Positions 7,168 to 63,696 are shown, counted from the stretch's first letter. The stretch is DNA of 64,000 nucleotides from Candidatus Dormiibacterota bacterium (GCA_963830305.1 CAWHLW010000005.1:2473-66472); one strand, 5' to 3'. The notes: generated by a model from the sequence alone, not told the origin. A program made the numbers and translations.

Positions 7168-8035
7168 ATGCCTGAGTTCCTCGTCGGTGAGCTGGTTCGC
7201 CAGCGCATGGGGGTGCTCAGTGCCTCGGAGCGTCGGCTCGCGCAGGTGCTGCTCGCCTTCTACCCGGTCGCCGGCCTCGAGAACCTGACCCGCTTCGCGG
7301 AGCGCGCCGGGGTCAGCCCCGCGACCGTGACCCGGTTCATCGCCAAACTCGGCCTGCGCGGCTACCCGGAATTCCAGGACTCGCTCCGCCAGGAGTTGCA
7401 GGAGCGGTTGAGCTCACCGCTTGCCCGGTACGAGCTGACCGCCGCGCCAGATCCGAACGGCTCGACGCTGCGTGACGCATTCGCGACGCAGGAGCACAGC
7501 CTGCGGGCGAGCGTTGACATGGTCTCCGAGCACGATTTCGACGCGGTGATCGACCTGCTCGCGGATCCACGCCGGCGCGTCCTCTCACTGGGCGGACGGG
7601 TGAGCGCGTTCCTGGCCCGCTATCTCGCCAGCCAGCTGCATCTCATCCGACCGGGAGTCGAGCTCATCGACCCGGAACGGAGCAACCCCGCCGACCATCT
7701 CGTCGACCTCGGGCGCCGGGACATCCTGGTCGTCTTCGACTACCGCCGGTACCAGAGCGACACGATCAACAGCGCCAAGGTCGCAGCGGGGCGCGGCAGC
7801 ACCGTCGTGCTGGTGACCGATCCCTGGTTGTCGCCGGCTGCGGCCTCGGCGCGATTCGTGCTCGTCACCGGCGTGCAGACCACCGTCGCCCCGTTCGAAC
7901 TCGATGGTGTCCGCGGTGGCGCTCACCGAGGCCCTGATCGCCGGGGTGCTGGCGCGGCTCGGCGAAACGGCGCACGCGCGGATGCGACGCATGGACGAGC
8001 TGCGCGGCGGCGTCGTCTACGGCGACGGTCCCTGA
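7168..8035 (+). pseudogene. MurR/RpiR family transcriptional regulator (HTH + SIS), frameshifted as assembled
   Basis: N-terminal HTH_6 (ERRLAQVLLAFYPVAGLENLTRFAERAGVSPATVTRFIAKLG) and SIS domain are in frame 7168. After 7897-7902 (GAACTC) the frame yields an Arg-rich tail. The +1 frame gives PFDSMVSAVALTEALIAGVLARLGETAHARMRRMDEL, ending at the TGA at 8033-8035. Confidence 0.8.
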
Positions 8036-8053
8036 GCGAGGTACATTCCCGGC

Positions 8054-8668
8054 GTGATCGCTGAACGGCTCGAGCTGGCCGACTGGCGTCGGCAGGTGAG
8101 CGAGCTGTACGTCGCGATCCGCGCCGAACCGGATCCGGTGGTCGCATGGACGCACTGGCGCGAGGGGCGCGATCGACTCTTTCGCGCGCACCCGCAGAGC
8201 CCCGTCCCGCAGAGCGACCGCGGCGACGCGACCGCGCCTCTCTATTACGAGTACGACCCTGCGCTGCGCACCGTCGCGGAGGTCGAGCCGGCCGACGGCG
8301 CAACGTTCGAGCTCCCCGGATCCACGAGCGGTCATGTCACCGCCGAACGTGCCGGTACGGCGCGCTTCGTCCTCGGCGATCAGTCGGTCGGCCTGTCGGT
8401 GTTCTGGCTGCTCGACTATGCCGGTGGCTTCTTCCTTTCATTTCGCGATGCCACCAGCGCAGCGGAGACGTACGGCGCGGGTCGGTATCTGCTGGACACC
8501 GCGAAGGGAGCGGATCTCGGGGTCAGCGCGGATGGCCGCCTCATCCTCGATTTCAATTTCGCGTATCAGCCTTCGTGCAGCTACGACCCGCAATGGAGCT
8601 GTCCGCTGCCGCCGCGCGAGAACTGGCTGGCGATCCCGATCCGTGGTGGCGAACGCTTCCGCTCGTGA
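8054..8668 (+). CDS. DUF1684 domain-containing protein
   Basis: 204 aa. The C-terminal FNFAYQPSCSYDPQWSCPLPPRENWL is the DUF1684 hallmark. Confidence 0.8.
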   Translation: MIAERLELADWRRQVSELYVAIRAEPDPVVAWTHWREGRDRLFRAHPQSPVPQSDRGDATAPLYYEYDPALRTVAEVEPADGATFELPGSTSGHVTAERAGTARFVLGDQSVGLSVFWLLDYAGGFFLSFRDATSAAETYGAGRYLLDTAKGADLGVSADGRLILDFNFAYQPSCSYDPQWSCPLPPRENWLAIPIRGGERFRS

Positions 8669-10222
8669 TCAGAACAGCGAGGGGATCACCGCCTCGATGA
8701 GGTGAGGGCCCGGTTCTGCGAAGGCTCGCTCCAGGTCGGCGGTGAACGCCTCGGCAGTCTCCGGCCGGGTGGCCGGAACCCCAAATCCGCGCGCCAGCGC
8801 CACGAAGTCGACGTCCGGCGGGGAGATGTCGAGCATCTCGAGGGCGCGCGTGCCGGACGCCGCTGCCCCGACACGGGCGAGCTCCATGCGCAGGATGGCG
8901 TAGCGGCGGTTGCTGAAGATCACCGTGGTCACGTCGAGCTGTTCCCGAGCCATGGACCAGAGCGCTTGCAGGGTGTAGAGCGCCGAGCCGTCCGCCTCGA
9001 GCGCCAGCACCGGACGATCGGGGCAGGCGATCGCTGCTCCGAGCGCGACTGGGAGACCCTGGCCGATCGCGCCGCCCGTCAGGCTGAGCCAGTCGTGCCG
9101 AGGCGCCGCCGCCGTGAACGCCGGCAGGAAGGTGCCGCTGGTGTTGGCCTCGTCGGAAACGATCGCTCCCTCCGGCAGGAGCGCGCCGATGGCGCGGGCG
9201 ATCGATTCAGCGCCGAGCTCTCCCGCCGGCCTATCCGGTCTTGAAGGGGATCCGCCGTCGGGTGCGGCACTTGCGCCCAGCTCGCCGGCAAGCAACTCCA
9301 GCGCAGCGATGGCGTCGTCGCCGCCGCCCGCCAGGACAGTGACCTCGCAACCCTCGGGCACCAGGTCGCTCGGCTTGCCAGGGTAGGCGAAGAACGACAC
9401 CGGCGAGGTGGTGTCGACAAGGATGAGGTGGCGAAGACCGTCGAGCTGACCGGCGGCCATCTCCGCGAGGTAGGCGAGGCGCTGGATCACCGGGATGCCG
9501 GCGCCTCGCTCGGCGCGCGCCGGGAATGTCTCGACGAGCACCTCCGCCCCTGTCGCAGCAGCGATGCGGGAGGCAGCACGCAGCCCGGGTTCTCGGAGCG
9601 CGCTGCCACCGAGCAGGAGAGCCGCATTCTGCTTGGAGCGCAGCGCTGCTGCCACCGCCTCAAGCGCCTCGGACCGCACCGCGAGGCGCGCAGCCCGTGG
9701 CTCCGCCGGCGCTACCGAACCGCCTTCAGACCACGACACGTCGGCGGGGAGGATGAGGGTTGCGACCTGTCCCGGTGGACCGCACGCTGCGGCAACCGCT
9801 GCAGCAGCATCGGCACCGACCGACGCAGAGTGGATGCTTCGGCGGATCCAGGTCGAGACGTTGCGGGCGACGGTGTCGATATCGGACTCGAGCGGAGCGT
9901 CGTATCGCTTGTGAGAGGTCGCGTGGTCGCCGACGATTGCCACCACGGGTGCACGGCTGCGCCGCGCGTTGTGGAGATTCGCAAGTCCGTTGCCGAGGCC
10001 GGGCCCGAGGTGCAGCAGCACCGCGGCGGGGCTCTCGCGCATCCGGGCATAGCCGTCCGCTGCGCCGGTTGCGACCCCTTCGAAGAGCGCGAGCACACCG
10101 CGCATCTCCGGAACGGCGTCGAGGGTAGCGACGAAATGCATCTCCGACGTGCCGGGATTGGCGAAGACCACGTCCACATCCGACGCCACGAGGCTGCGCA
10201 GCAGCGCCTCGGCGCCGATCAT
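8669..10222 (-). CDS. thiamine pyrophosphate-binding protein (acetolactate synthase large-subunit-like)
   Basis: 517 aa. N-terminal TPP_N (FANPGTSEMHF ... GAADGYARM) and C-terminal TPP-binding stretch EADGSALYTLQALWSMAREQLDVTTVIFSNRRY. Confidence 0.85.
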   Translation of the reverse strand: MIGAEALLRSLVASDVDVVFANPGTSEMHFVATLDAVPEMRGVLALFEGVATGAADGYARMRESPAAVLLHLGPGLGNGLANLHNARRSRAPVVAIVGDHATSHKRYDAPLESDIDTVARNVSTWIRRSIHSASVGADAAAAVAAACGPPGQVATLILPADVSWSEGGSVAPAEPRAARLAVRSEALEAVAAALRSKQNAALLLGGSALREPGLRAASRIAAATGAEVLVETFPARAERGAGIPVIQRLAYLAEMAAGQLDGLRHLILVDTTSPVSFFAYPGKPSDLVPEGCEVTVLAGGGDDAIAALELLAGELGASAAPDGGSPSRPDRPAGELGAESIARAIGALLPEGAIVSDEANTSGTFLPAFTAAAPRHDWLSLTGGAIGQGLPVALGAAIACPDRPVLALEADGSALYTLQALWSMAREQLDVTTVIFSNRRYAILRMELARVGAAASGTRALEMLDISPPDVDFVALARGFGVPATRPETAEAFTADLERAFAEPGPHLIEAVIPSLF

Positions 10223-11625
10223 CCGCGCGCCACGCCGGCCGCCTTGGGAGAGGGCTCGAGCATCGCGCCTGGATTGAGGATGCCGTCGGGATCGAATGCA
10301 GACTTGATCCTGTGCATGAGCGCGAGCTTCGCAGGATTCTCGAGGGCGAGGAAATGGGCACGTTTGTCGGTGCCGATGCCGTGCTCACCCGATACCGCAC
10401 CACCCAGCGCTGCACCCGCCTCGAAGACGTGTCGCAGCACCCGTTCGAGCCGCTCCGGGTCCGGCTGGAACACCGACAGGTGCACGTTGCCGTCGCCGGC
10501 GTGCCCGCATCCCAGGATCATCGATCCGCTGTCCTGTGCAATTACTGACACTTGCGCCAGAAACTCGGGGATCTGGGCGCGCGGGACGACGGTGTCGACG
10601 ATCTCATTGGCACCCGCGGCCTTGGCGGCGAAGAAGGCACGCTCCCGGGCACCGATGAGGTCGGCCGCCGCTCCAGCCGGGAGCACGTAGACGTCAAGAG
10701 CACCGAGCGTGGTGATGAGGTCGCCGAGCGACTCGATGTCCTCGTCGAGCCGAGCGGGATCGCGTGACTCGAGGACCACCACCAGGTAGGCGAGTGCTGC
10801 TTCCTTGATCGCTGTCCCGATCCCCAGCTCGAGCCCGCGCGCTGCGGTGATCGCCGCCATGGTCATCATGTCGATGTACTCGAGGATCATCGGTGCGGCA
10901 CCGCTCTGGACGATGCGCGGCACCGCGCCGGCGATCTCCGCCACGGTGCGGAACGGCGCGAGCACGGTGGCGGCGTGCGGCTGGCGCGGGTAGAGACGCA
11001 GGATCGCCTCGGTGACGATGGCGAGCGTGCCCTCGGAGCCGACGATCAACTGGGTGAGGTCATAGCCGGAGGTCGCCTTCACGAACTTGCCCCCGGTCCG
11101 GATGATTTCGCCCGTGCCGAGCACGGCTTCAAGTCCGAGCACCTGGTGGCGAGTCACGCCGTATTTGACGGCGCGCATTCCGCCCGCGTTGGTCGCGACG
11201 CTGCCGCCGGCGCTCGCGCTGCTCTCGCCGGGGAAGACCGGATATACGAGCCCGTGTCTCGCCAGGGTGTCGTCGAGCTCACGCAGGGTGACGCCAGGCT
11301 GCACGACCGCGACCTGGTTCTCGACGTCGATCTCGAGGATGGCGCTCATCTCTCGAAACGTGATCAGGATCCCGCCTTCCCGGGGCACGCAGGCCCCCGC
11401 CAGTCCCGTTCCCGAGCCACGCGCAGTCACCGGCATCGAGAACTCGCGCGCAATCGCAATGATCTCGGCGACCTCGGCAGCGGAATGGGGGAAGACCACG
11501 ACGTCCGGCGCGTGCCAGTGGGCGACCAGCGATTCATCGTGCCAGTCGTCCTCGCTGACCTCGGCCGCGGTCAGGGTCCTCGCCGGACCGAGGAGTGCAG
11601 TGAGCTTGTCGAGAGCACCGAGCAT
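10219..11625 (-). CDS. FAD-linked oxidase (GlcD/D-lactate dehydrogenase-like)
   Basis: 468 aa. FAD_binding_4 region VVVFPHSAAEVAEIIAIAREFSMPVTARGSGTGLAG and C-terminal GGAVSGEHGIG. 4-nt overlap with the downstream TPP gene. Confidence 0.9.
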   Translation of the reverse strand: MLGALDKLTALLGPARTLTAAEVSEDDWHDESLVAHWHAPDVVVFPHSAAEVAEIIAIAREFSMPVTARGSGTGLAGACVPREGGILITFREMSAILEIDVENQVAVVQPGVTLRELDDTLARHGLVYPVFPGESSASAGGSVATNAGGMRAVKYGVTRHQVLGLEAVLGTGEIIRTGGKFVKATSGYDLTQLIVGSEGTLAIVTEAILRLYPRQPHAATVLAPFRTVAEIAGAVPRIVQSGAAPMILEYIDMMTMAAITAARGLELGIGTAIKEAALAYLVVVLESRDPARLDEDIESLGDLITTLGALDVYVLPAGAAADLIGARERAFFAAKAAGANEIVDTVVPRAQIPEFLAQVSVIAQDSGSMILGCGHAGDGNVHLSVFQPDPERLERVLRHVFEAGAALGGAVSGEHGIGTDKRAHFLALENPAKLALMHRIKSAFDPDGILNPGAMLEPSPKAAGVARG

Positions 11626-11635
11626 CGGGCGGCTC

Positions 11636-12436
11636 CTACGAGCTGGTGAAGGTTGCCCGGCGCTTCTCGAGAAACGCGCTCACGCCCTCGGCGAAATCGC
11701 GCGTGGTCGTCGCCTCCGTCTGGAGGCGCTCCTCGACCGCGAGCTGCGCCTCGAGATCGTTCTCGCGCGAGAGCTCGAGCGCACGCTTGGTGAGCCCGAT
11801 CGAACGCGGTCCCCGTGCGAGCCGGCCGGCGAGATCCGCGGCTGCGACCGGAAGCTCGGCGTCCGGGACGACCCAGTTGACGACGCCCAGCTCGAGCGCG
11901 CGCGACGCATCGACGGTATCGCCGAGCATGGTGAGCTCGGCAGCGCGGGCCGGGCCGATGAGGCGAGGAAGAAAGTACGTGCTGGCCAGGTCGGGGATGA
12001 GCCCGATACGCACGAATGCCTGCACGAACGTGGCGGACTCGGCGGCGATGCGCAGGTCGCATGCAAGCGCGAGGGAGAAGCCGGCGCCGGCGGCAACGCC
12101 GTTGACGGCCGCGATGACCGGCTGATCCATCGAGCGGATCGCCCGAATCGCCGGTGTGTAGTGATCCCGGAGGATCGCACCGACGTCAAGGCCACCTTCG
12201 CCGGCAGTGGCGCGCAGGTCCTGGCCGCTGCAGAAGCCGCGTCCTGCACCGGTGATGATCACCGCTCGCACCGCGCGACCAGAAGCGGCCTCGCGGAGCG
12301 CATCGGTGACCTCGTCAAGGAGCGCCGGCGTGATCGCATTGAGCACCTCGGGGCGGTTGAGGGTCAGCGTCAGCACCCCGTCGCTGACGCTCGCGAGGAG
12401 CTGCGGGGTGGTCACCGGCGTTGCTTCTGCGGCCAT
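11636..12436 (-). CDS. enoyl-CoA hydratase/isomerase family protein
   Basis: 266 aa. Crotonase oxyanion motif ITGAGRGFCSGQDL. Confidence 0.9.
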   Translation of the reverse strand: MAAEATPVTTPQLLASVSDGVLTLTLNRPEVLNAITPALLDEVTDALREAASGRAVRAVIITGAGRGFCSGQDLRATAGEGGLDVGAILRDHYTPAIRAIRSMDQPVIAAVNGVAAGAGFSLALACDLRIAAESATFVQAFVRIGLIPDLASTYFLPRLIGPARAAELTMLGDTVDASRALELGVVNWVVPDAELPVAAADLAGRLARGPRSIGLTKRALELSRENDLEAQLAVEERLQTEATTTRDFAEGVSAFLEKRRATFTSS

Positions 12437-12448
12437 TCGCGGCGAACT

Positions 12449-12766
12449 CTACGCCGACGCGTCGCCGAGCTCGCGGAGCCGCTGATAGGTGTAGATGCCC
12501 GTGTTGTGTCCATCGGCCCACACGGCGTTGAGGCCGTAGGCGCCGACCAGCGAGATGTCGGCGAGCTCATCCTCTCCCGGACGGAGATCCGGGTCGGAGC
12601 TGAAGCGGCCACGGTAGCCGGGCTCGCCTTTGCACGCGGCGCACGGGCACGCGCGCCGGAGCACCGCAAAGGGAATGTGTTGCGCGGCACCGTCAGACCA
12701 CTCGATCAGCAGCGAGCGGTGCTTCTCGTCGTAATCGAAGCGCACGGGTCGGAGATCCACGGCCAC
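12449..12766 (-). CDS. DUF971 domain-containing protein (gamma-butyrobetaine hydroxylase-like N-terminal domain)
   Basis: 105 aa. LLIEWSDG ... LRRACPCAACKGE ... YGLNAVWADGHNTGIYTY pattern. Confidence 0.75.
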   Translation of the reverse strand: MAVDLRPVRFDYDEKHRSLLIEWSDGAAQHIPFAVLRRACPCAACKGEPGYRGRFSSDPDLRPGEDELADISLVGAYGLNAVWADGHNTGIYTYQRLRELGDASA

Positions 12767-12786
12767 CGTGCGCGGACCGACGCCGC

Positions 12787-13113
12787 CTAGCGGAGCACCG
12801 ACTGGAGCTTCATCGCCAGCCCCATGTCGCCCTTGATCTTGATCTTGCCGCTCATGAAGGCCATGGTGCCGTCGAGCTTGCCGGTGGCCAGGTCGACGAA
12901 GTCCTCCGATTTCATGTTGATGGTGATGTTCGGATTCTCGGGGACACCCTCGCCGACGTCAGCGGTCCCGTCCTTGATCGAGATGTGGTACTGGCCGGGC
13001 GCCTCGCCGCTGAGGTCGAACGCGTAGATCGCATTCATCCCAGCCGTCTTGGCGGGATCTGCGGCGATGCGGGAATTGATCTCGCTGAAAATTTCGGCCG
13101 GAGTGGACGGCAT
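12787..13113 (-). CDS. SCP2 sterol-binding domain-containing protein
   Basis: 108 aa. C-terminal GKLDGTMAFMSGKIKIKGDMGLAMKL is a typical SCP2 motif. Confidence 0.8.
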   Translation of the reverse strand: MPSTPAEIFSEINSRIAADPAKTAGMNAIYAFDLSGEAPGQYHISIKDGTADVGEGVPENPNITINMKSEDFVDLATGKLDGTMAFMSGKIKIKGDMGLAMKLQSVLR

Positions 13114-13302
13114 CGTTGGTACTCCCTTGCGATTGATCTGTATGCAGCCCCCAACGCGGCGGGCGTGATCCAGTCTACTGACTGAGAGCGGGGCGGACGC
13201 GACACCGGCTACAGCGTCGGAGCCTGAGAATCACCTGAGACCCACGCGCGCAACAGCGCAACCCAGGCGAATTCTCAGGTCGAGCTCGGAGACTCGGCGG
13301 CC

Positions 13303-14751
13303 ATGGGCAGCGCCAACCTCAGGCTCAGCCGCCGGCAGGTCCTCGGCATCGCAGCCGGGGGAGTGGTGGGCGCCGTGGGCTTCCGGTACCTCACGTTGCA
13401 GCTGCCCGGCGGGTCCCAGCAGGTTGCGTCCGCCGCCGGATCTGCGGGCGCCTGGACGAGCCCGCTCTCGAATGCGACCGGCCTGGCCGCTCACCTCCTG
13501 CGCAGAGCCACCTTCAGCTACACCGCGGACCAGCTCGAGACGGCGGCGTCGATGTCGTATCCGGACCTCGTCGACATGGTCCTCAACCAGGCAGCGGCAC
13601 CGTTGCCGGCGGTCGCCGACCCGACCGACTACCAGGCCGTTGTCCGTGCCTGGTACGAGCACATGGCGACCACGCCCGCGCAGTTTCCCGAGCGCATGAC
13701 GCTCTTCTGGCACGGGCTGCTGACCAGCGACTACCGGAAGGCGGCGCGCCTGCCCTTCGTGCTCCAGCAGAACGAGCTGTACCGATCGATGGGGCGGAGC
13801 GACTTCCGCACACTCATCAGCGCGGTCACCTACGACCCGCTGATGATTCGCTACCTCGACCTCGAGGAGAGCACCGCAGCCGCTCCCAACGAGAACTACA
13901 GCCGCGAGCTGATGGAGCTGTTCACGCTCGGCGTGGGCAACTACACCGAGACCGACGTGCGCGAGGGGGCTCGCGCCTTCTCCGGAATCCGCACCGTCCT
14001 GGTCGATGCGAGTGGAAAGCGCATCCAACCGCCGAAGGCCAAGGGCTCGACGCCGGCGGAATACACCCAGGCGATTCAGCAAGTGCTCGCCACAGGCGCG
14101 ACGTTCAAAGGTGTCCTGGCAAGGAATCAGCACGACACCGGGAGCAAGACGTTCCTCGGCCACACCGGGAACCTCGATCCCGCGCAGGCGCTCGACATCA
14201 TCGTCGCGCAGCCGTCGTGCGCACCGCACATCGCCCGTCTTGCGCTGGAGCAGTTCTGCACGCCCAACCCGTCGAGTGCTCTGATCACGAGCGTCGCGAC
14301 TCCATTCCGCGCAAGCAACTACGACATCAAGACGCTGATGCGCACCATCTTCACCAGCGAGGCATTCACGTCCCCCGCGGCGTATCGGTCGCTGGTTCGC
14401 GGGCCGGCCGAGTACATGGTCGCGAGCATGCGCGCTCTCGCGGCGCCTGATCTCGCCGCGACGTCGACGCGCTCGGGCGCAGCCATGGACCAGATCCTCT
14501 ATGACATGCCGACGGTCGCAGGGTGGCCGTCCAACCAGGGATGGGTCTCGTCGGGAGCGTGGCTGGCGCGTCTCAACTTCGCCGCTGCAGCGGTTGCGAG
14601 CGCGCGGAGCTTTGCGGATCCGGTGGACGCGGTGAAAGTGCAGCTCGACGGCGTCGTAGGCCCGGACACCGCAACCGTGTTCAACGCGAGCGAGAGCGAT
14701 GGCGACCGCTGGTACGCGCTGCTCGCGAGCCCGGAATTCCAGCTCAAATGA
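13303..14751 (+). CDS. DUF1800 domain-containing protein (Tat-type signal)
   Basis: 482 aa. N-terminal LSRRQVLGIAAGGVVGAVG twin-arginine-like signal. Paired with DUF1501 immediately downstream, which is the canonical pairing. Confidence 0.85.
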   Translation: MGSANLRLSRRQVLGIAAGGVVGAVGFRYLTLQLPGGSQQVASAAGSAGAWTSPLSNATGLAAHLLRRATFSYTADQLETAASMSYPDLVDMVLNQAAAPLPAVADPTDYQAVVRAWYEHMATTPAQFPERMTLFWHGLLTSDYRKAARLPFVLQQNELYRSMGRSDFRTLISAVTYDPLMIRYLDLEESTAAAPNENYSRELMELFTLGVGNYTETDVREGARAFSGIRTVLVDASGKRIQPPKAKGSTPAEYTQAIQQVLATGATFKGVLARNQHDTGSKTFLGHTGNLDPAQALDIIVAQPSCAPHIARLALEQFCTPNPSSALITSVATPFRASNYDIKTLMRTIFTSEAFTSPAAYRSLVRGPAEYMVASMRALAAPDLAATSTRSGAAMDQILYDMPTVAGWPSNQGWVSSGAWLARLNFAAAAVASARSFADPVDAVKVQLDGVVGPDTATVFNASESDGDRWYALLASPEFQLK

Positions 14752-14761
14752 GGCAGAGGAC

Positions 14762-15998
14762 ATGATCACGCGACGAGACTTCATGGTCAGCGGTATCACC
14801 GCAACCGGCGTGGGCATCATCGTGCCGCCGGTCTTTGCGCAGTCCGTGTTCGCCGCCACCATGGAGGACGTCCACAACGACCGCGTCCTCGTCATCCTGC
14901 AACTCGGTGGCGGCAACGACGGGCTCAACACCGTCGTCCCATACGCGGACCCGGCGTACCTTCAGGCACGGCCGAACATCGGCATCCCAGCCGACAAGGT
15001 CCTGCCGCTGAATGCGGAGGTCGGCCTCAACCCGGTGATGCCCGGCATCAAGCACCTCTTCGACGCCGGCGAAGTCGCGTTGGTGCAGGGCGTCGGCTAC
15101 CCGAACCCTGTGTACTCGCACTTCGAGGGTCTGTACATCTGGGAGCACGCGGATCCCACCATGCAGCAGACCGAGGGATGGCTCGGCAAGTTGCTCGCGA
15201 GCCAGCTCGACAGCCAGGGACACCCTCTCGCCGGATGCGCATTGGGCCAGGCGAGCACGCCGGCGGAGCTGCTGGCCCAGAACGCCACGGTGAGCGTCAT
15301 CGATTCGATTCCCACCTACCAGGTCGACGGCGGCGCCGGCCATCGCGTCGCGGCCCCGGCCCTCTACAAGAAAACGCCGGGCATCTACGGCGCGCTCTTC
15401 GACCAGGCGCTGAGCACCGCTGAGTACGGAATCGCCGCGCTGGCGGATTCGCAGAGCCGCTACACACCATCGGTGACGTACACGCCGCAGAGCACCGTGT
15501 ACGGCAGCAAGAACAGTCTCGCGACATCGCTGCAGCTCACCGCCGAGATGATCGTGACGCAGCCGAGCGTCAAGATCTGTCATGTCGTCCTCGGTGGCTT
15601 TGACACCCACCAGGATGAGGACACACGCCAGAACGCCCTGCTCGCATACATCGACAGCGCGGTGAGTGCCTTCATGCAGGACATCGCCAACCACGGCATG
15701 GCGGACAGGGTCGTGCTGATGACCTGGTCGGAGTTCGGACGGCGGGTGGTTGAGAACGGCGGCAAGGGGACGGATCACGGCGCTGCAGCACCGATCTTCG
15801 TTGTGGGGAAACCGGTGCAGGGCGGTGTCTTCGGTGAGCAACCCTCACTCACCAACACGGTCGAACTCGGGGAATCTCAAATACAACATCGACTTCCGCA
15901 GCGTGTATCAGACACTCATCCGCGACTGGCTGCAGGCGGACCCGACATCCGTGCTCGGCGCCTCCTTTCCCGAGCTCCCGATCATCAAGACGGCGTGA
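14762..15998 (+). pseudogene. DUF1501 domain-containing protein (sulfatase-like, Tat signal), frameshifted as assembled
   Basis: Starts MITRRDFMVSGITATG (Tat motif). In frame through GKGTDHGAAAPIFVVGKPVQGGVFGEQPSLTNTV. After GAACTC at 15863-15868 the conserved C-terminus GNLKYNIDFRSVYQTLIRDWLQADPTSVLGASFPELPIIKTA continues in the +1 frame to the TGA at 15996-15998. Confidence 0.8.
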
Positions 15999-16435
15999 GC
16001 GTGGTCCTCAGCACCCGGTCACTCAAGCTCTTGAGCGGAGTGGGTGCCGTGGCGGTCTGCGGTGTCAGCGGCCTCCTCGTCGCCGCCGATCCCAAGCCGC
16101 TCACCGCACCGCTGCGCCCGCCGGTCAACGGCTCGCCGTCGAGCACCGCTTCGCTGCACATCCCGCCGTCCTGCGGCTCCGGAACCCTCGACCCGTCGTT
16201 GCTGCCGATCGTGCAGCGGCTGCGTCAGGCAACCACCACATCCGCGCGCCGAACCATTCTCGCCGCACTGAGCCCCACGCAGCGACTCGAGATCGAAGCC
16301 TACTTGCGCGCAACGGGCCGCTCCGCGATCGGCGCGAGCACGAGCTGCGCCAACGCCGGCGGTGACTCGATCGCCCCGTCGGTCGTCGAGGCCCCGGCCT
16401 CGACGCAACCGCTGATCAACACCTACGTCTCATGA
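15995..16435 (+). CDS. hypothetical secreted/membrane-anchored protein
   Basis: GTG overlaps the DUF1501 stop (GTGA). N-terminal hydrophobic LKLLSGVGAVAVCGVSGLLVAA. Its stop overlaps the ApbE ATG (ATGA). I recognised no family. Confidence 0.5.
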   Translation: MSVVLSTRSLKLLSGVGAVAVCGVSGLLVAADPKPLTAPLRPPVNGSPSSTASLHIPPSCGSGTLDPSLLPIVQRLRQATTTSARRTILAALSPTQRLEIEAYLRATGRSAIGASTSCANAGGDSIAPSVVEAPASTQPLINTYVS

Positions 16436-17427
16436 GCGCCAAAAGGTGCAGCGCCATACACCATGTTTTCACAGCGTTCGGCGGCGCCCGATGTGACGTG
16501 ATCGCCTGCGATGCGAATGAGGACGACACATCAGCGGTGATCGTGGAAACGTACGCGTTCGAACACCAGCTCACGAGATTCGACCCGCAGAGCGAGCTCT
16601 CGCGCTTCAACGTCGCAGCCGGCACGCGTGTCACGGTCACGCCGTTGCTCGCCGAACTGCTCTGCGTCTGCCTCGACGCGTATGACCTGAGCGATGGCCT
16701 CGTGAACGCCGCCTGCCTTCCCGCACTCATCGACGCGGGATACGACCGCACCATCACAGAGGTCCGGCGCCATCCGGTCAACCGACCTCATACGACACCT
16801 CGACGTGAAGTGCCGCCATTGCCCGACGTGCTCGAGGTGGGGGATACGTGGGCACGAATTGCGGCGGGCTGCGCTGTCGACCTCGGCGGTGTCGGCAAAG
16901 GGTGGCTCGCCGACCGGCTCTGCGAGCGCTTCGACAACGCAGCGATCAACCTCGGCGGTGACGTTCGCACCCGCGGTGCCGGACCAAACGGCACAGGCTG
17001 GACAATCGCGCTCTGCAACGGACGCTGCGTAACCGTTCAAGACGCCGGCATCGCCACCTCGGGAACCTCAGCACGCCGCTGGCCCGGCGGTCACCACCTC
17101 ATCGATCCGCGCACTGGGGTCCCGGCGCAGACCGACATCAGGGAGATTTCCGTGATCGCCAATACCGCGCTACACGCGGAAATCCTCGCGAAGGGAGCAT
17201 GCCTGCTCGGCAACGACGCGGCCGTCGCATGGCTCCAGCGGCGAGGTGCAGCACGTCAGGAGATCATCCGGGTCGATGCAGCCACACTGAGCAGGCCGGG
17301 AGATCGTCCGGGACGCAGCGCATTTGGTAGCGACCGAGAGAGCGCGACAATCTGCTTGCGCGAACGAGGGAGCGGACAAGCTAAGCGGTGGCCCGGACGA
17401 TCTCCCGGCCGTCCGAACATGACGTGA
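16432..17427 (+). CDS. FAD:protein FMN transferase (ApbE family)
   Basis: 331 aa. ApbE-like FDPQSELSRFN, VDLGGVGKGWLAD, INLGGDV and HHLIDPRTG. The last ~50 residues are low-complexity, so the true C-terminus is uncertain. Confidence 0.75.
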   Translation: MSAKRCSAIHHVFTAFGGARCDVIACDANEDDTSAVIVETYAFEHQLTRFDPQSELSRFNVAAGTRVTVTPLLAELLCVCLDAYDLSDGLVNAACLPALIDAGYDRTITEVRRHPVNRPHTTPRREVPPLPDVLEVGDTWARIAAGCAVDLGGVGKGWLADRLCERFDNAAINLGGDVRTRGAGPNGTGWTIALCNGRCVTVQDAGIATSGTSARRWPGGHHLIDPRTGVPAQTDIREISVIANTALHAEILAKGACLLGNDAAVAWLQRRGAARQEIIRVDAATLSRPGDRPGRSAFGSDRESATICLRERGSGQAKRWPGRSPGRPNMT

Positions 17428-17982
17428 GCCCCGACCTGATCCTCTGGTACGCAGCACGTGCTGCGGCTCTCGCCGCTTTCTTCGTGCTCGCCGGCATCGC
17501 TGCTCACCGGCATGGCGATCCGAACGGCGTACCTGGCACCGCTGGCGCGCAACCGTGCGGTAATCGCGGTGCACGGGTTTCTCACGTGGTTCTGGGTGCC
17601 GCTGGTGGTTGTGCACGTGACGGCCCTGGTGCTCGACGCGACATCGCGGATCACGCCGCTCGACCTGCTGGTGCCGTTTCGAGTCAACGAAGGGACGGGG
17701 TCCAATCTCGCCATCGGCCTTGGCACCGTGGGATTACTGCTGCTCGTGCTCATCGCCGCGACGTCGGCACTGCGACGGTTCATGCGCCCGAGTGTCTGGC
17801 GCTGGATCCATCGCCTGACCTATCCGATGTTCGTGATCTTCCTGATCCACGCACAACTGGCCGGCACTGACTTCAGCGAGGTGGCGATCAGCCTGGCTGC
17901 CTGGGCGACCCTCGGTGGACTGGTCGCGCTCGCATTACTCCGGGCGGCCGGCGGAAGGATGACGAGCGAACCTCCCGTGTAG
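17424..17982 (+). pseudogene. ferric reductase-like transmembrane domain protein, apparent +1 frameshift near 17495-17505
   Basis: The family-typical N-terminus VSPDLILWYAARAAALAAFFVLAGIA is in the frame of GTG 17424 (GTGA overlap with ApbE). The remainder, LLTGMAIRTAYLAPL...VHGFLTWFWVPLVVVHVTALVLD...WRWIHRLTYPMFVIFLIHAQLAGTD, is in the frame of ORF 17458-17982. Confidence 0.55.
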
Positions 17983-18011
17983 TCCTTTCTTAAGCCGGGT
18001 ACACTCGGTGC

Positions 18012-18470
18012 ATGTTGACCTGGATGTGGGTGGTCTGGTTGATTGCCGGCCTCGTTCTCGTGGGCCTGGAAGTGCACACCCAGGCGTTCTACTCGCTCTT
18101 CCTCGCGCTGGGCGCGTTCGCGGCGACGGTGGTCGCACTGTTCCCGACGGATGTATGGCTGCAAGCAGTCGTCGCAGCCGCCGTTGCCATCGTGGGCACC
18201 CTGGCCGTCCGGCCGACTCTTGCCCGACTCTCGGCGAAGCACCTCGGTCCCAGGCTCACCATGCCCGGTGCGTCTGACAACCTGGTCGGACAGGCCGCGC
18301 TGACCCTCGAGCCCGTGGGCGATGAGAATCATCCTGGCCACGCCAGGCTCTTCAATGAAAAGTGGCTGGCTTTCACCACGAGCCCGGGTGGCGTCCCGGC
18401 GCACCAGCAGGTTACCGTCGTGGAAGTTCGCGGCACCACACTCGTGGTCGCCCCGCCCAAGGGAGGCTGA
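18012..18470 (+). CDS. NfeD family membrane protein
   Basis: 152 aa. Three N-terminal hydrophobic helices plus a C-terminal OB-like domain (GQAALTLEPV...GHARLFNEKWLA). Precedes an SPFH gene, which is the classic pairing. Confidence 0.8.
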   Translation: MLTWMWVVWLIAGLVLVGLEVHTQAFYSLFLALGAFAATVVALFPTDVWLQAVVAAAVAIVGTLAVRPTLARLSAKHLGPRLTMPGASDNLVGQAALTLEPVGDENHPGHARLFNEKWLAFTTSPGGVPAHQQVTVVEVRGTTLVVAPPKGG

Positions 18471-18474
18471 CTCA

Positions 18475-19440
18475 GTGGACAACAGCGGTCTGGTCACGGC
18501 GATCATCGTCGTCGTCCTGCTCATCGTGGTGGCGATCCTCGTCGGCGGTGCAGTGCGTGTCGTACCGCAGGGATTCGCCGGAGTGGTCACTCGTTTTGGA
18601 CGGTTTCGGCGGGAATCACAAGCCGGTTTGACCATCATCACGCCGTTCATCGACAAGTTGCTCCGGGTTGACATGCGCGAGACGCCGCGTACCGGTGACC
18701 GTCAGGACGTGATCACGCGCGACAACGTCGCGGTGGCCGTGAACGCCACGATCTTCAGCCAGGTGATCGAGCCGAGGGCTGCGCTGTTCAACGTGTCCGA
18801 CTACCTCGTCGCCATCGACCAGCAAGCCCGTACCACGTTGCGTAATGCATTCGGCAACGTCAGCCTCGATGAGGCGCTGTCCTCTCGCGAGCAGATCAAT
18901 GCCGCCATGCAGCAGCAGATGGAACAGGTCACCGACAAGTGGGGGATCCGGATCAACCGCATCGAGATCGTCGACATCTCGCCGCCGGTGCAGATCCTCC
19001 AGGCGATGGCGCTGCAGAAGCAGGCCGACCAGGAGAAGCGCGCACGCATCCTGCAGTCGGAAGGCCAGCAGCAGTCGGCGGTCAACATCGCAGACGGCAA
19101 CCGGCAGGCCGCGATCAAGCAGGCGGAAGGCGAGCGGCAGGCGGCCATCCTTCGAGCGGAAGGCAACCGGCAGGCCGCCATCCTCGAAGCCGAGGGTCGC
19201 GCCCAGGCGATCTCCACCGTGTACGGATCGATCAAGGCAGCGCAGCCGGATCCCACGCTGGTCGCCATCCTCCAGCTCGACACCTTGACGAAGTTCGCGG
19301 AGAGCCCCAACGCCAAGCTCGTGGTCCCGGCAGAGACGTCCGGGCTCCTCGGCGCGGCGCAGGTCCTGCGTAGCGTGCTCGGTGATGCGCCGGGGCTCGA
19401 ACCCCCGACCGTCGTCACCGTGCCACCGTCCAGTAGCTGA
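18475..19440 (+). CDS. SPFH/band 7 (stomatin-like) family protein
   Basis: GTG preceded by GGGAGG. TM segment followed by VRVVPQGFAGVVTRFGRF...DVITRDNVAVAVNATIF. Coiled-coil QAAI/AEG repeats at the C-terminus. Confidence 0.9.
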   Translation: MDNSGLVTAIIVVVLLIVVAILVGGAVRVVPQGFAGVVTRFGRFRRESQAGLTIITPFIDKLLRVDMRETPRTGDRQDVITRDNVAVAVNATIFSQVIEPRAALFNVSDYLVAIDQQARTTLRNAFGNVSLDEALSSREQINAAMQQQMEQVTDKWGIRINRIEIVDISPPVQILQAMALQKQADQEKRARILQSEGQQQSAVNIADGNRQAAIKQAEGERQAAILRAEGNRQAAILEAEGRAQAISTVYGSIKAAQPDPTLVAILQLDTLTKFAESPNAKLVVPAETSGLLGAAQVLRSVLGDAPGLEPPTVVTVPPSSS

Positions 19441-21728: not shown

Positions 21729-22961
21729 CTAGGCCGGCGTCGATGCCGCGACGATCGCCCGGCTGAAGGCCGCCACGGACTGCTCGAGGTCGGCGATCGT
21801 GTGCACCGACGAGCAGAACGCGCTCGTGTTCAGGATGTCGACTCCCTCCGCGCGCATCGCATTGGCGATTCGCGCCTGCGCGGTGGCTTCGCCCAGGAAG
21901 ATGTGCAGGATGCTCGACAGGCGCCGGATGGTCCCCGGGATGCCGGCCGCCTCGAGGGCAGCCGTCCACTCGACAGCGAGGCTCATCGCGTATTCCTCGG
22001 CCAAGCGGCCGGCAGCGCCGTCGGCCACCACGCGCAGCGTCGCGATCCCGGCGGCTGCACTCAACGGATTGGCATTGAAGGTGCCCGGGTGGGCGATTGT
22101 CGTGGCCAGCAGTTCGAGCAGGTCGGCCCGCCCGGCGACGGCACCCGCTGGCAGGCCACCTGCCATCACCTTGCCGAGCACGCTGATGTCGGGGGTGATC
22201 CCGAGCACCACCTGCATGCCACCGGTGGAGACGCGGAAGCCGGTGACCACCTCGTCGAAGATGAGCACCGTGCCTGTCGCCGTGCACGCTGCGCGGGCGG
22301 CAGCGATGAACGAAGGGTCGAGCGGCAGCTGGCCGTAGTGCGCCCCCGAGGGCTCCACGATCACAGCAGCAACATCGGCGCGGCCGAGGGTTGCGACGAG
22401 GTCGGCAGGATCATCGCTGCGGACGACGGTGGTGAGCAGACCAAGCGCCTCGGGTACGCCGATCGGGGTCCGGGTGTTGCCGTCAGCGTCGAGGTATGGG
22501 CTCACTGCATCGGACCAGCCGTGGAAGTGGTCCTGGAGCTTGACGATGCGATCGCGACCCGTCGCCGCCCTGGCCACTCGCAGCGCGAGCATCACCGCCT
22601 CGGTGCCGGATGCCGTAAATCGAACTTTCTCAGCCGACGGCACGAGCGACACGATCTGTTCCGCCCATTCGACCTCGAGCGGATGCGCAGCGCCGTAGTG
22701 TGTCCCACGCGACACCTGCTCCTGCACCGCCGCGACCACTGCGGGGGGCGCGTGCCCGAGGAGCAGCGCCCCGTGACCCATCGTGTAGTCGATCAACTCG
22801 GTGCCATCGATGAGCCACTTCCTCGAGCCGCTTGACCGCGCCACGTAGATCCGCGGATCGTAGGTTCGCGACGCATGCGTGGCTCCGCCGGGGAGCACCT
22901 GACGCGCCCGTTCGGCGAGATCCGCGTGGGCGCGCGTGTGGACGGCGTCGGTCACGGACAC
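21729..22961 (-). CDS. class III (PLP) aminotransferase, glutamate-1-semialdehyde aminomutase-like
   Basis: 410 aa. Motifs VLPGG, FTASGTEAVMLALRVARAATGRDRIVK, FDEVVTGFR and LGKVMAGG (PLP Lys). Confidence 0.85.
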   Translation of the reverse strand: MSVTDAVHTRAHADLAERARQVLPGGATHASRTYDPRIYVARSSGSRKWLIDGTELIDYTMGHGALLLGHAPPAVVAAVQEQVSRGTHYGAAHPLEVEWAEQIVSLVPSAEKVRFTASGTEAVMLALRVARAATGRDRIVKLQDHFHGWSDAVSPYLDADGNTRTPIGVPEALGLLTTVVRSDDPADLVATLGRADVAAVIVEPSGAHYGQLPLDPSFIAAARAACTATGTVLIFDEVVTGFRVSTGGMQVVLGITPDISVLGKVMAGGLPAGAVAGRADLLELLATTIAHPGTFNANPLSAAAGIATLRVVADGAAGRLAEEYAMSLAVEWTAALEAAGIPGTIRRLSSILHIFLGEATAQARIANAMRAEGVDILNTSAFCSSVHTIADLEQSVAAFSRAIVAASTPA

Positions 22962-22980
22962 GCCGAGAGGATACCCGGCA

Positions 22981-23054
22981 TGGAGGCGACGGTGGGAATC
23001 GAACCCACGGTCAGGGTTTTGCAGACCCGTGCCTTACCACTTGGCTACGTCGCC
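22981..23054 (-). tRNA. tRNA-Cys (anticodon GCA)
   Basis: The reverse complement folds as a cloverleaf: acceptor GGCGACG/CGTCGCC, D-arm GCC-AAGTGGTAA-GGC, anticodon loop CT-GCA-AA, T-arm GTGGG-TTCGATT-CCCAC, discriminator U73 (Cys identity element), encoded CCA. Confidence 0.9.
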
Positions 23055-23168
23055 TCGTAACCTGGAACTCGACATTGTCGCCGAAGGACCCACGCACGCA
23101 GCCACTCCTTGCGAGACGGTCTGGCGTCACACGGCTTGTAGACTCGACCTGATGCGGAGAGAGCGTCA

Positions 23169-24161
<993 letters not shown>

Positions 24162-24279
24162 ACCCGGTCGCGCGGCTCGTTCCTCGTCCTTTTGGCCACT
24201 CGCGGTTTCGTCAACGCGCTCCGAGTGCGTCTCACGGTGGGTACGATTCGGATCGCACGGGGTTTTGATAGGAGACGGC

Positions 24280-27789: not shown

Positions 27790-27806
27790 GGCGGCGATCC
27801 TGTCGC

Positions 27807-27834
27807 TTGCACCTTTTGACGCGTTCAGTAATAC
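27807..27834 (+). promoter_or_regulatory. candidate sigma-70-type promoter (TTGCAC-N16-TAATAC)
   Basis: Hexamers at 27807-27812 and 27829-27834 in an A/T-richer intergenic stretch, about 55 nt upstream of a small ORF. Confidence 0.25.
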
Positions 27835-27890
27835 TGTGATGAGGTGGCGCGGGGGCGCCGGAAGGGACTGATTCGACCGGGGGGTTCGGG

Positions 27891-29597: not shown

Positions 29598-29685
29598 GCC
29601 GGGCTGGCGAAATGGCAGACGCGGCGGTCTTAAAAACCGCTGGGGGGAAACCCCCGTCCGGGTTCAATTCCCGGGCCCGGTACCA
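29598..29685 (+). tRNA. tRNA-Leu (anticodon UAA), class II with long variable arm
   Basis: Acceptor GCCGGGC/GCCCGGT, anticodon stem GCGGT/ACCGC with loop CT-TAA-AA, variable arm GGGGGG-AAA-CCCCC, T-arm CCGGG-TTCAATT-CCCGG, encoded ACCA. Confidence 0.9.
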
Positions 29686-58406: not shown

Positions 58407-59700
58407 ATGAAGGACAGCAACGCCCGGGCGCTGCGCGCGCGCGCCGAGCGTGTGCTTCCTGGGGGCGTCGACAGCCCCGTGCGCGCTTACCGCGCCGTTC
58501 CTGGCGTGCCGCCGCACATCGTCGCGGCCGAGGGCGCCCACGTTGTCGACGCCGACGGCAATGAGTTCATCGATTACGTGCTCGCCTACGGGCCGCACAT
58601 CCTCGGTCACCAGCCACCCCGGGTCGTCGCGGCGATCCGTGCCCAGCTCGATCGGGGCATCGCATATGGCCACACAGTCGAGCTCGAGGTCGAGCTGGCA
58701 GAGCGGATCGTCGACGCGGTCGATTCGGTGGAGATGGTGCGTTTCGTCACCTCTGGCACCGAGGCCGCCATGTCCGCGATGCGCCTGGCCCGCGCAGCCA
58801 CGGGACGGGACCGGATCGTGAAGTTCGCAGGCGGATACCACGGCCACGCCGATGCGCTCCTCGCCGAGTTGGGATCGGGGATCGCGACCCTCGGGATTCC
58901 AGGCTCACCCGGAGTTCCCGGCTGCGGCGGTGGCCGGCACGGTCGTGCTCCCCTACAACGACCTCCATGCCATCCTCGACCTCTTCGAGCGCGAGGGCGA
59001 TCAGATCGCCGCAGTGGTCGTGGAGCCGGTCGCCGGCAACATGGGGTGCATCCCTGCCGAGCCGGGGTTTCTGGACGGACTTCGCGACTGCACATCCAAA
59101 TGGGGTGCTTTGCTCGTATTCGATGAAGTGATGACCGGATTCCGCGTGGCCTACGGCGGCGCTCAGACCCTTTACGGGGTTCGTCCCGATCTCAGCCTCT
59201 TCGGCAAGGTGATCGGTGGTGGGCTCCCGGTGGGCGCGTACGGCGGCCGTCGCGACCTCATGGAGCAGATCGCCCCGTCGGGTCCCGTCTACCAGGCGGG
59301 GACGCTTTCCGGCAGCCCGCTGGCGATGGCTGCCGGGATCGCGGCGCTCGACGTCCTTCGCGAGAACCCCGCGCTCTACGAGCGCCTGGAGCGACTCGGG
59401 CAGCGCCTCGAAACAGGATTCAAGACGGTCGCGGCCGAGGCGACCATGCCCTTCGCCGTCGGTCGCGTCGGCAGCATGATCACGCCGTTCATCGGGATCG
59501 ACGAGGCCCGCAGCTTCGACGACGTGAAGCTGGCAGACCGGGAGCGATTCGGGCGCATCCACGCGGCGTGGCTGGACGACGGGGTCCTCTGGCCACCCTC
59601 TCAATTCGAGACCGCGTTTCTTTCGACGACACACTCGGATGAGGACGTGGATAGGACGGTCGAATCGTTCGCCCGCACCCTGTCTTCGGTCTCAGTCTGA
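58407..59700 (+). pseudogene. hemL: glutamate-1-semialdehyde 2,1-aminomutase, frameshifted as assembled
   Basis: N-terminal part (VLPGGVDSPVRAY...FVTSGTEAAMSAMRLARAATGRDRIVKFAGGYHGH...GIPGSPGVP) is in ORF 58407-59126. The remainder (AAAVAGTVVLPYNDL...FDEVMTGFR...FGKVIGGG...) is in ORF 58852-59700, the +1 frame. The junction is at GAGTTC, 58912-58917. Confidence 0.9.
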
Positions 59701-59742: not shown

Positions 59743-60040
59743 ATGGGATTCATAGGCGGACATCTGCCGGAACTCATCATCGTGCTGGTGGTGATCCTGA
59801 TCATCTGGGGGCCGGGCAAACTTCCCGACATCGGCGCGGGTATCGGCAAGGGCATCCGCGAGTTTCGCAAGGCTTCGACCGAGAACTCACGACACGGTGA
59901 TGGGAACCACCACCACCCCGGCGCAGCCGGCTCCGGTCGTGCAGGTCGTCGCTGCGCCTGCTCCGGCCCCGGCACAGCCCGCGGAGCCCGTGACTGTCGC
60001 GGCCGACGCGACGACACACCAGCCCTCAGTTTCTGGCTGA
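59743..60040 (+). pseudogene. tatA: twin-arginine translocase TatA/E family subunit, frameshifted in its C-terminal tail as assembled
   Basis: [45 protein letters not shown] is intact. After GAACTC (59883-59888) the listed frame becomes Arg-rich. The +1 frame reads [53 protein letters not shown] and stops at 60038-60040. Confidence 0.8.
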
Positions 60041-61583: not shown

Positions 61584-61587
61584 GCGG

Positions 61588-62190: not shown

Positions 62191-62193
62191 AGT

Positions 62194-62874
62194 TCAGCCG
62201 GCCGGGATCGAGGCGCCGGTCACCGCCGCGGCGGCGTCGGAGAGCAGCCACTCGATGACGGCGGCAACCGAGTCCGTGCTGACCCATGACGATCGGTGCG
62301 CCTTCGGCATCGACTCGCGATTCCCGGGCGTGTCCATGGTGCCCGGGAGTACCGCATTGACCGTGATCCCATGGCCCTGGAGCTCTGCCGCCATGACCTG
62401 GGAGAGCTTGAGGACCGCCACTTTGCTCACCTGGTAGGCAGCCTGACCGCGGGCCACGGCCACCGCCGCCTGCGACGCGACAATCACGATCCTGCCGCCC
62501 GTACCGCCGGCGACCATGGACGCTGCCGCCGCGCGTGCCAGCCGCCACGGTCCGAGCAGGTTGGCTGCGATCTGGCCTTCGATGACGGCATCCTCGACCT
62601 CGTGAGCCCGGCCGCCGGCGTACCCGCCTGACGCGCTCACCATGCCCTCCCAAGCGCCCATGGCCTCGACATCGATCCGCAGTCTCGCAACGGAGTCAGC
62701 ATCATCGAGGTCGCACTCGACCTCGGTGACTCCCTCGAGCTGCGCCGTCCGGCCCGGATGCCGGGTGGGGACCACGATGCGCCGGCCTGCCGCTGCCAGA
62801 CGGCGCACGACTGCGGTACCGAGGGCGCCACCGCCGCCACCAACAACGGTGACCCCACCTTGTCGAACAACCAC
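62194..62874 (-). CDS. SDR family oxidoreductase
   Basis: I chose the GTG after AAGGA (VVVRQGGVTVVGGGGGALG). Active-site YQVSK and PGTMDTP. Confidence 0.8.
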   Translation of the reverse strand: MVVRQGGVTVVGGGGGALGTAVVRRLAAAGRRIVVPTRHPGRTAQLEGVTEVECDLDDADSVARLRIDVEAMGAWEGMVSASGGYAGGRAHEVEDAVIEGQIAANLLGPWRLARAAAASMVAGGTGGRIVIVASQAAVAVARGQAAYQVSKVAVLKLSQVMAAELQGHGITVNAVLPGTMDTPGNRESMPKAHRSSWVSTDSVAAVIEWLLSDAAAAVTGASIPAG

Positions 62875-62885
62875 AATATTTCCTT

Positions 62886-63696
62886 GTGGACCGAGGGACC
62901 GAGCCGACGTTCCAGCCACGGGCAGTGGCTCGCGCCGTGGCGGCCATCATCGCGCTCCTGGCCGCCGGACTGGCGGGATTCCTCATCGCAAACCAGGTCG
63001 CGCAGGTCAACCCGAGCAAGGTTTCGCCGATCAGGCTTCCGCCGGTGAAGGCTCCGAACTCCATCACCACCGCTCCTCACCGACATCGGCCGCGACGACC
63101 TTGCCAGCGTGGTGACCGTTGAGGCCGAGCTCGAGAGTGGCGCCGAGGAGTCGCTGGGGACCGGTTGGATCTTTGACAGCCTCGGTGACGTGGTCACCAA
63201 CGCGCACGTGATCAACGGCGACGACACACTTCGCGTGAGTGATCGCACCGGTCACACCTACGTCGCCCGCCTCATTCAGAGCAGCGAGAGCAGCGACCTG
63301 GCGCTGCTGCGCGTGACCGGGACGCTCACCGGAACACCCTTGCCGATCGACGGTCGAACCCTCAGCGGAGTCCCTGCCTCGGTCCTCACGCTGGCTTCCA
63401 GCCGGGCCACAGGACACGCGGACATGACCGCGGAGACGCTCATCGGCCTGGACGACGACGTTCCCCTTCAGGGAAGCGGTATCGAGGCCGGCCAGTCGCT
63501 GCCCCAGGAGTACGACGACATGCTCCACCTCCAGGGAGCTCGCATCTACGAGGGCAACAGCGGTGGTCCGGTGCTCGACGCCGCGGGGCAGGTGATCGGG
63601 ATCATCACCCTGGCAAGCCCCTCAACCGCGAACTCATATGCGATCCCGATCAGCCGCGTGCTCTCCACGCTGCGTCAATGGGTTGCGGCCGGATGA
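62886..63696 (+). pseudogene. membrane-anchored trypsin-like (S1/HtrA-type) serine protease, frameshifted as assembled
   Basis: The TM anchor VARAVAAIIALLAAGLAGFLIA is in ORF 62886-63122. The protease domain (GTGWIFD...VVTNAHV...SDLALLRV...GNSGGPVLD) is in ORF 63109-63696, the +1 frame. The junction is at GAACTC, 63055-63060. The exact start (62886 or a GTG near 62922) is uncertain. Confidence 0.8.

Follow-up and report, generated by a model that had tools for sequence, protein, structure and literature searches.

An extra base at GACTC/GAGTC interrupts seven genes of a Candidatus Dormiibacterota contig and is probably a motif-specific error of long-read consensus

A 64,000-nt stretch of a contig from a Candidatus Dormiibacterota bacterium (GCA_963830305.1, CAWHLW010000005.1:2473-66472), here called the window, carries about 62 genes, mostly for ordinary metabolism and transport, at a G+C content of 67%. 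Seven of these genes, encoding an RpiR-type regulator, a DUF1501 protein, two class III aminotransferases, HemL, TatA and an S1/trypsin-like protease, are each broken by a single extra base located in the hexamer GAACTC or its complement GAGTTC, whose removal leaves GACTC/GAGTC. The extra bases are almost certainly artefacts that do not exist in the DNA of the organism. The full explanation that we favor, namely motif-specific errors of a long-read consensus with base modification as the trigger, is probable. The window most likely derives from a long-read metagenome assembly (Oxford Nanopore, assembled with Flye and Medaka, with no short-read polishing), judging by its error profile and its relatives. 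All seven genes should accordingly be treated as intact.

The association of GAACTC/GAGTTC with +1 frameshifts in seven genes was initially noticed in a sequence-only reading of the window and was borne out by the analysis. The window was scanned with a codon-usage hidden Markov model (HMM) trained on the window itself, which has six coding frames and a non-coding state and forbids stop codons within coding frames, and all direct frame switches on the same strand were listed. Because the HMM is blind to the hexamer, the scan is independent of the motif. Most of the switches correspond to ordinary gene boundaries, with a stop codon within 0-13 nt. Switches without a nearby stop were detected in six of the seven genes, whereas in tatA the coding signal simply terminates (Table 1). 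All seven junctions represent +1 shifts and lie at most 16 nt from a copy of GAACTC/GAGTTC. Translation of the junction regions showed gene halves in frames +1 apart, which are rejoined by deletion of one A from GAACTC. Furthermore, alignment to independent contigs placed a single extra base within the hexamer at all seven sites. Overall, ~9-10 single extra bases within coding sequence are specific to the window, of which seven lie in GAACTC/GAGTTC; these seven corrupt ~11% of the genes. The probability that chance alone would direct each of seven insertions to one of the 98 doubled-base positions of the 64 kb is ~2e-20, or ~2e-11 if a tolerance of ±16 nt is allowed. The hexamer of the S1 protease gene lies one base to the right of the position given for it in the sequence-only reading (63055-63060).

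The earlier claim that deletion of one A restores conserved sequence also holds. In four of the corrected proteins, a Pfam match crosses the junction: the SIS domain of the RpiR-type regulator (residues 134-257, junction at residue 243), Aminotran_3 in the 34.7-kb aminotransferase (21-420, junction at 333), and the matches in the 41.8-kb aminotransferase (55-392, junction at 141) and HemL (37-360, junction at 169). For the other three, the evidence comes from uninterrupted genes in relatives. The Pfam match of the corrected DUF1501 protein terminates at the junction; corrected TatA has 98 aa, the same length as called in the relatives, with the junction outside the domain; and in the S1 protease the junction falls in the linker that connects the N-terminal membrane anchor to the protease domain, with Trypsin_2 located downstream. 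The hexamer is not disruptive in itself, as had been pointed out previously: it occurs 49 times in the window, and only 7 of the 49 copies are found at gene-breaking junctions, the other 42 residing in uninterrupted open reading frames (ORFs).

Table 1. Presumed motif-linked errors in the window (the last two rows are probable substitution errors)
Gene	Gene location and strand	Motif or position	Presumed error	HMM junction	Relatives
RpiR-type regulator (HTH_6 + SIS)	~7168-8035, +	GAACTC 7897-7902, +	one spurious A	switch at 7903	
DUF1501 gene	~14762-15998, +	GAACTC 15863-15868, +	one spurious A	switch at 15872	
Class III aminotransferase (34.7 kb)	34395-35685, -	GAACTC (coding strand) 34683-34688	one spurious A	switch at 34691	
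Second class III aminotransferase (41.8 kb)	40904-42275, -	GAACTC (coding strand) 41848-41853	one spurious A	switch at 41849	
hemL	58407-59700, +	GAGTTC on + (coding) strand 58912-58917, GAACTC antisense	one spurious T	switch at 58896	
tatA	59743-60040, +	GAACTC 59883-59888, +	one spurious A	coding ends at 59886	
S1/trypsin-like protease	62886-63696, +	GAACTC 63056-63061, +	one spurious A	switch at 63071	
34.7-kb aminotransferase		34663 (coding -)	probably GAGTCG->GAGTTG, Ser->Leu		20/22, including L010, have G on + strand, giving GACTC
hemL		58870 (+)	probably GAGTCG->GAGTTG, Ser->Leu		5/5 aligned have C

Independent contigs were gathered by exact-protein look-ups and two collection scans; the look-ups with RNase PH, DUF1800 and FAD oxidase yielded no matches. 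The extra base is absent at 7/7 sites in every short-read-type contig of related populations (>35 contigs, 80-98% identical), and the closest of these relatives have GACTC/GAGTC at the seven sites. Over a 3.8-kb alignment at 98.3% identity, 63 substitutions and a single indel distinguish a Joint Genome Institute metagenome contig (L001) from the window. This indel is the one at the hemL site, where the window has GAGTTC and L001 has GAG-TC (within GGAG-TCC). At 93-97% identity, a further eight contigs (L002-L009), whose names are of the MEGAHIT, Logan or scaffold type, have no extra base in the hemL, tatA and S1 protease genes wherever these are covered, and their products are a HemL of 430 aa, a TatA of 98 aa and a single 248-aa protease. 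In L002-L008, the missing bases correspond to 58916, 59884 and 63057 of the window. Specifically, the base is absent from hemL in L002, L003, L005 and L006, the tatA site reads GAG-ACTCACGA in L002-L006 and L008, and in L002, L003 and L004 one gene spans the protease site. The left part of the window (230-18728) is collinear with a 90% identical contig of a Stordalen Mire Illumina metagenome-assembled genome (MAG), Candidatus Dormibacterota palsa_859 (L054). The only two 1-nt coding indels in this 18.5-kb alignment are those at the RpiR (7898) and DUF1501 (15864) sites, and L054 has GACTC at both (TTCG-ACTCGATGG and GTCG-ACTCGGG, respectively). In the 34.7-kb aminotransferase gene, the extra base is missing from 28/28 metagenome contigs with an alignment reaching the site, which reads CTCGACTCGAC in the closest of them, L092 and L115 (~94% identical). 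Finally, window positions gapped in >=60% of the aligned relatives include 6/7 sites, and the remaining positions are almost all intergenic or multiple-of-three differences; 7898 is below the threshold only because the gaps of the relatives vary in placement within the doubled base.

The decisive comparison is with a near-identical sequence. Contig_27316 of ENA analysis ERZ25039553 (L010; 997 kb) is 99.5% identical to positions 29482-50903 of the window and, as its Flye-style name suggests, comes from another long-read assembly. L010 has the same extra base as the window at 34683. By contrast, it has no extra base at 41851 (GAGAG-TCGACTC). Conversely, a GAGTC->GAGTTC insertion at 45984 is peculiar to L010, the window having GAGTC there and the gene being intact. 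Thus, different copies of the pentamer are altered in two assemblies of essentially one population.

The same scan was applied to other genomes, with the caveat that the HMM, having been trained on the window, is of uncertain sensitivity in other phyla and may over-call in actinobacteria. Short-read contigs L002 and L013-L015 contain zero +1 junctions, and the two in L003 are each located beside runs of N. In a nanopore MAG of another Dormibacterota species from the Microflora Danica project (MFD00731, CAWBSL010000002.1; L089), the orthologues of DUF1501 and DUF1800 are each shifted by +1 at a GAGTTC (positions 6409 and 7872). The window and L054 are one base shorter at both positions, and once a T is deleted the ORFs regain lengths of 1491 and 1536 nt. 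Likewise, 2/2 of the +1 junctions in another locus (CAWJYZ010000005.1; L023) coincide with GAACTC (6777 and 20230). Microflora Danica long-read MAGs were assembled with Flye from Nanopore reads alone and passed through Medaka once (PMC12313526). In 11 actinobacterial loci with MFD-type names, presumably nanopore and presumably from the same project, 0/36 frameshift-like junctions are at the hexamer despite the presence of 358 GACTC/GAGTC sites (0/358 versus 7/95 in the window, Fisher p = 1.5e-5), and no common motif is evident at these junctions, some of which the HMM may have over-called. Since short-read contigs and actinobacterial loci are unaffected, whereas L089 and L023 are affected, the effect is confined to long-read assemblies and to certain lineages. 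Indeed, the error is organism-specific, being found in the window, L010, L089 and L023 but not in the 11 actinobacterial loci.

In addition to insertions, the window has AACTC/GAGTT where most relatives have GACTC/GAGTC at 34663, 58870 and 38680, and also at 2401, 20710, 36260 and 53434. The first two result in Ser->Leu replacements and, from the alignments, are probably motif-linked substitution errors (Table 1). L010 displays the same GACTC->AACTC-type change at 40041 and 47450. The peptide AFAVELDLVG, quoted in the sequence-only reading as conserved, likely contains such an error, because the relatives have Ser in place of the Leu of the window (AFAVESDLVG). Window-specific G->A changes at G|ACTC occurred in 7/81 opportunities compared with a 2.7% background (odds ratio 3.4, p = 0.007), and the reverse change occurred once; this excess is suggestive, as several contexts reach similar rates by natural divergence. 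In R10.4.1 assemblies, base modification causes strand-specific errors, mainly C->T and G->A, which persist after treatment with Medaka or Racon and by which methylation motifs can be recognized (Liu et al., Genome Res 2024, PMC11610603), and the changes at our motif agree with this published signature. Furthermore, native DNA was found to have higher substitution and insertion rates than amplified DNA (2026 preprint, bioRxiv 10.64898/2026.01.14.699587). The 5' flank of the motif also appears to matter: TC precedes 4/7 affected versus 10/88 unaffected sites (p = 0.008), which fits a k-mer-dependent failure of basecalling. Methylation of TCGA (TaqI-type) was considered as the primary motif and rejected, given that TCGA is present in only 4/7 window sites and 7/12 overall. 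No insertions were seen at TCGA outside GACTC, and TCGA was kept as a flank effect.

GANTC is the specificity of the adenine methyltransferases CcrM and M.HinfI, and GAGTC is that of the M.PleI/M.MlyI-type enzymes, which also modify adenine. The corrected core GACTC/GAGTC suits both, and the base duplicated here is the adenine that these enzymes would methylate. At GAATC/GATTC, defined by the majority of relatives, 0/64 sites carry an insertion, although N6-methyladenine (m6A) in that context might be basecalled correctly; the specificity may lean toward GAGTC/GACTC rather than CcrM-type GANTC. The lineage specificity, the moderate G->A/C->T enrichment at the motif and the literature suggest m6A methylation as the putative cause. 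Motif frequencies were explored as a further sign of restriction-modification. Relative to dinucleotide shuffles, GACTC appeared 2.3-fold depleted (88 versus 205 expected) and GAACTC enriched. Both signals vanished under a synonymous-codon-shuffle null (GACTC/GAGTC 73 versus 83±7, z = -1.4; GAACTC 39 versus 42±5), so that the GACTC deficit is a codon-usage effect and this line of evidence was rejected. Moreover, the density of GACTC sites is equal in the window and its short-read relatives. Dinucleotide-shuffle statistics in high-GC, gene-dense sequence should thus be treated with caution, as 'significant' motif signals may reflect codon usage.

We propose that the basecaller or polisher would emit the A twice at a minority of GACTC/GAGTC sites (7/95, ~7%), converting GACTC into GAACTC, and less often would replace the neighboring G with A (GACTC->AACTC, equivalent to GAGTC->GAGTT), motif copies preceded by TC being affected more often. 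The likeliest trigger would be a base modification placed on the motif by this lineage. Namely, a GAGTC/GACTC- or GANTC-specific methyltransferase, probably producing m6A, might distort the pore signal on one strand, and the consensus would tip over at some sites only, which would vary between assemblies. A systematic consensus or basecalling insertion at the motif had already been preferred in the sequence-only reading, and it is supported by the absence of the extra base in short-read relatives, the disagreement with L010, the recurrence in L089 and the occurrence in all codon phases and both orientations.

Several points weigh against modification-triggered consensus error. The extra base is absent from related populations (80-98% identity) rather than from DNA of the same sample, making this a comparison by proxy, and the platform of the window is itself deduced from the error profile, the near-identical contig with a Flye-style name and the MFD relatives. 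The insertion at 34683 is common to two long-read assemblies; such sharing is predicted by systematic error, but a real mutation predicts it likewise. No DNA methyltransferase gene was detected by Pfam annotation among the ~62 genes of the window, where the sole methyltransferase is a small HemK/PrmC-like one (32.3-33.0 kb), and under the codon-aware null GACTC/GAGTC is not depleted in the window and hence provides no independent sign of a restriction system. Two nanopore Dormibacterota loci, L012 and L016, are free of hexamer-linked frameshifts according to the HMM. Finally, substitutions make up most of the modification-induced nanopore errors in the literature, whereas insertions of one base at a specific motif are less documented.

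Alternatively, the basecaller or polisher might simply be biased by sequence context at (TC)GACTC k-mers, an effect that would be independent of modification and imply no methyltransferase. We regard this as unlikely. It would explain why the 5' flank matters and why neither a methyltransferase nor motif avoidance is observed in the window, and the unaffected L012 and L016 could reflect basecaller versions rather than methylomes. However, the same motif is free of hexamer-linked frameshifts at all 358 sites of the presumably nanopore actinobacterial loci, and the G->A/C->T changes conform to the signature of modification. Moreover, a universal insertion bias at GACTC would damage genes in every nanopore genome and be widely reported.

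Another possibility is that some or all of the insertions, for example the one at 34683, are real and arise at a GACTC +1 hotspot, for instance because a methylated or nicked type IIS site is repaired in an error-prone manner; we consider this very doubtful. If true, real insertions would represent standing frameshift heterogeneity in natural Dormibacterota populations. In a milder reading, the error pattern would be a genuine readout of adenine methylation at GAGTC/GACTC in this uncultured phylum. It is extremely improbable that the extra bases as a whole are real, with GACTC acting as a site-specific +1 insertion hotspot (for example, where a methylated or nicked site is damaged or repaired) and the genes being recent pseudogenes or population variants. 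The insertion at 34683 in assemblies from different ENA analyses and the presence of a single mutation class would be compatible with this scenario. By contrast, none of the short-read-type assemblies has the extra base at even one of the seven sites, the affected genes differ between 99.5%-identical populations, and the same 'mutation' is seen across species in long-read assemblies only. In addition, the sites have no repeat tract, and inactivation of ~11% of genes, including hemL and tatA, would have occurred with no secondary decay, the downstream codon usage and domains being intact. Programmed +1 ribosomal frameshifting or transcriptional slippage at GAACUC, ranked least likely in the sequence-only reading, is next to impossible: every case does involve a +1 shift at a common hexamer, but its G occupies codon position 1 (7897, 15863), 2 (34683) or 3 (41848, 59883, 63056) and the hexamer is antisense in hemL, which excludes a ribosome- or transcript-level mechanism, every relative has an in-frame orthologue that is shorter by one base, and 42 further copies of GAACTC lie within uninterrupted ORFs.

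The sequence-only reading counted eight frameshifted genes, and no convincing eighth case emerged from the HMM scan or the comparison with relatives. Three candidates were rejected. The junction called by the HMM at 53508 arises because the ORF of a DEDD exonuclease is spuriously extended at its N-terminus. At 30708-30711, a C/G homopolymer has four bases in the window versus three in L010, which alters the C-terminal tail of a DUF6458 protein. The window version of the tail (…RRREVVDPAGATRTTTIEQR) is, we presume, the more family-typical one, and an error in L010 is likelier. The third candidate, the HemK/PrmC-like gene, lacks a canonical start codon, but its frame is unchanged. Its N-terminal ~60 codons (32262-32452; …RRLTGEPLAWITG…VYVPR…) show a good coding signal, and no ATG, GTG or TTG is present in this frame before 32453; L010 is identical in this region. 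The gene could have a non-canonical start or could have lost its start codon.

Other differences between the window and its relatives were also observed. Around 13 clustered one-base differences from L010, mostly C's missing from the window, are located at 37838-37912, at the convergent 3' ends of the genes for a DAO oxidase and an amino-acid permease; up to the stop codon of the DAO oxidase the relatives side with the window, and L010 is one base longer. L010 has many extra C/G bases at positions equivalent to 37971-38664, 41169, 44479, 45984-46635 and 48989 of the window, with no evident common motif. In L010 they disrupt three regions that the window has intact: the amino-acid permease, the gene at 45.8-46.8 kb and the 41.8-kb aminotransferase in its C-terminal part. 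At the boundary of RNase PH and RdgB (61587), the window lacks one base that all 93-96%-identical relatives have, and its RdgB has 200 aa, as against 203 aa in the relatives; either natural variation in length or an erroneous deletion at the junction may be responsible.

The segment at 22926-28581 is only ~85% identical to contig_27316, whereas the sequence to its right is 99.2-99.5% identical. The segment encodes an aldo-keto reductase, a 1275-aa zinc-ribbon/adenylate-cyclase/AAA_16/TPR protein and an NmrA-like protein, and is flanked by tRNA-Cys (22981-23054, - strand) and tRNA-Leu (29598-29685, + strand), the only RNA genes identified in the window by Rfam and tRNA scans. It has the appearance of a segment, bounded by two tRNA genes, that varies among strains. 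Use of L091 to extend the near-identical comparison leftward was uninformative, the 22.9-28.6 kb region being only 85% identical.

The biological interest of the phenomenon is low, and its practical value lies in the curation of long-read MAGs and their predicted proteins. Uncorrected motif errors inflate pseudogene counts, truncate or chimerise proteins and lower completeness estimates, and they also introduce false Ser->Leu or Asp->Asn substitutions. The artefact is already present in public nanopore MAGs, including GenBank and GTDB representative genomes (CAWBSL010000002.1, CAWJYZ010000005.1). Motif-aware polishing can repair these errors, and the error pattern itself offers an inexpensive hint of GACTC/GAGTC modification in this Dormibacterota lineage.

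Related error types have been described in other systems. Wick et al. in 2019 reportedly observed consensus errors at Dam and Dcm motifs (GATC, CCWGG) in R9.4.1 nanopore assemblies of cultured enterobacteria with known methylases. As in the window, these are systematic consensus errors at methyltransferase recognition sites in unpolished nanopore assemblies, but they involve other motifs and are mostly substitutions or deletions. The homopolymer indel errors of long-read platforms similarly comprise single-base indels that lead to false frameshifts in unpolished assemblies, whereas the site described here is a run extended from one to two bases and is defined by the surrounding pentamer rather than by run length; the homopolymer difference at 30708-30711 is an event separate from the hexamer insertions. 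A literature search for GAGTC-specific nanopore errors returned nothing specific, and the GACTC/GAGTC motif was not found in the two reports on modification-induced R10.4.1 errors (PMC11610603; 10.64898/2026.01.14.699587). The errors in these reports nevertheless appear to share several features with ours: they are motif-bound and lineage-specific, survive Medaka-type polishing, include G->A/C->T changes beside the presumed modified base and affect only a fraction of motif copies. They differ in that substitutions dominate there, whereas here duplication of the A in GACTC dominates and causes frameshifts. Modification-associated nanopore error is a known class, and the unusual aspect of the present case is the dominance of a one-base, frameshifting insertion.

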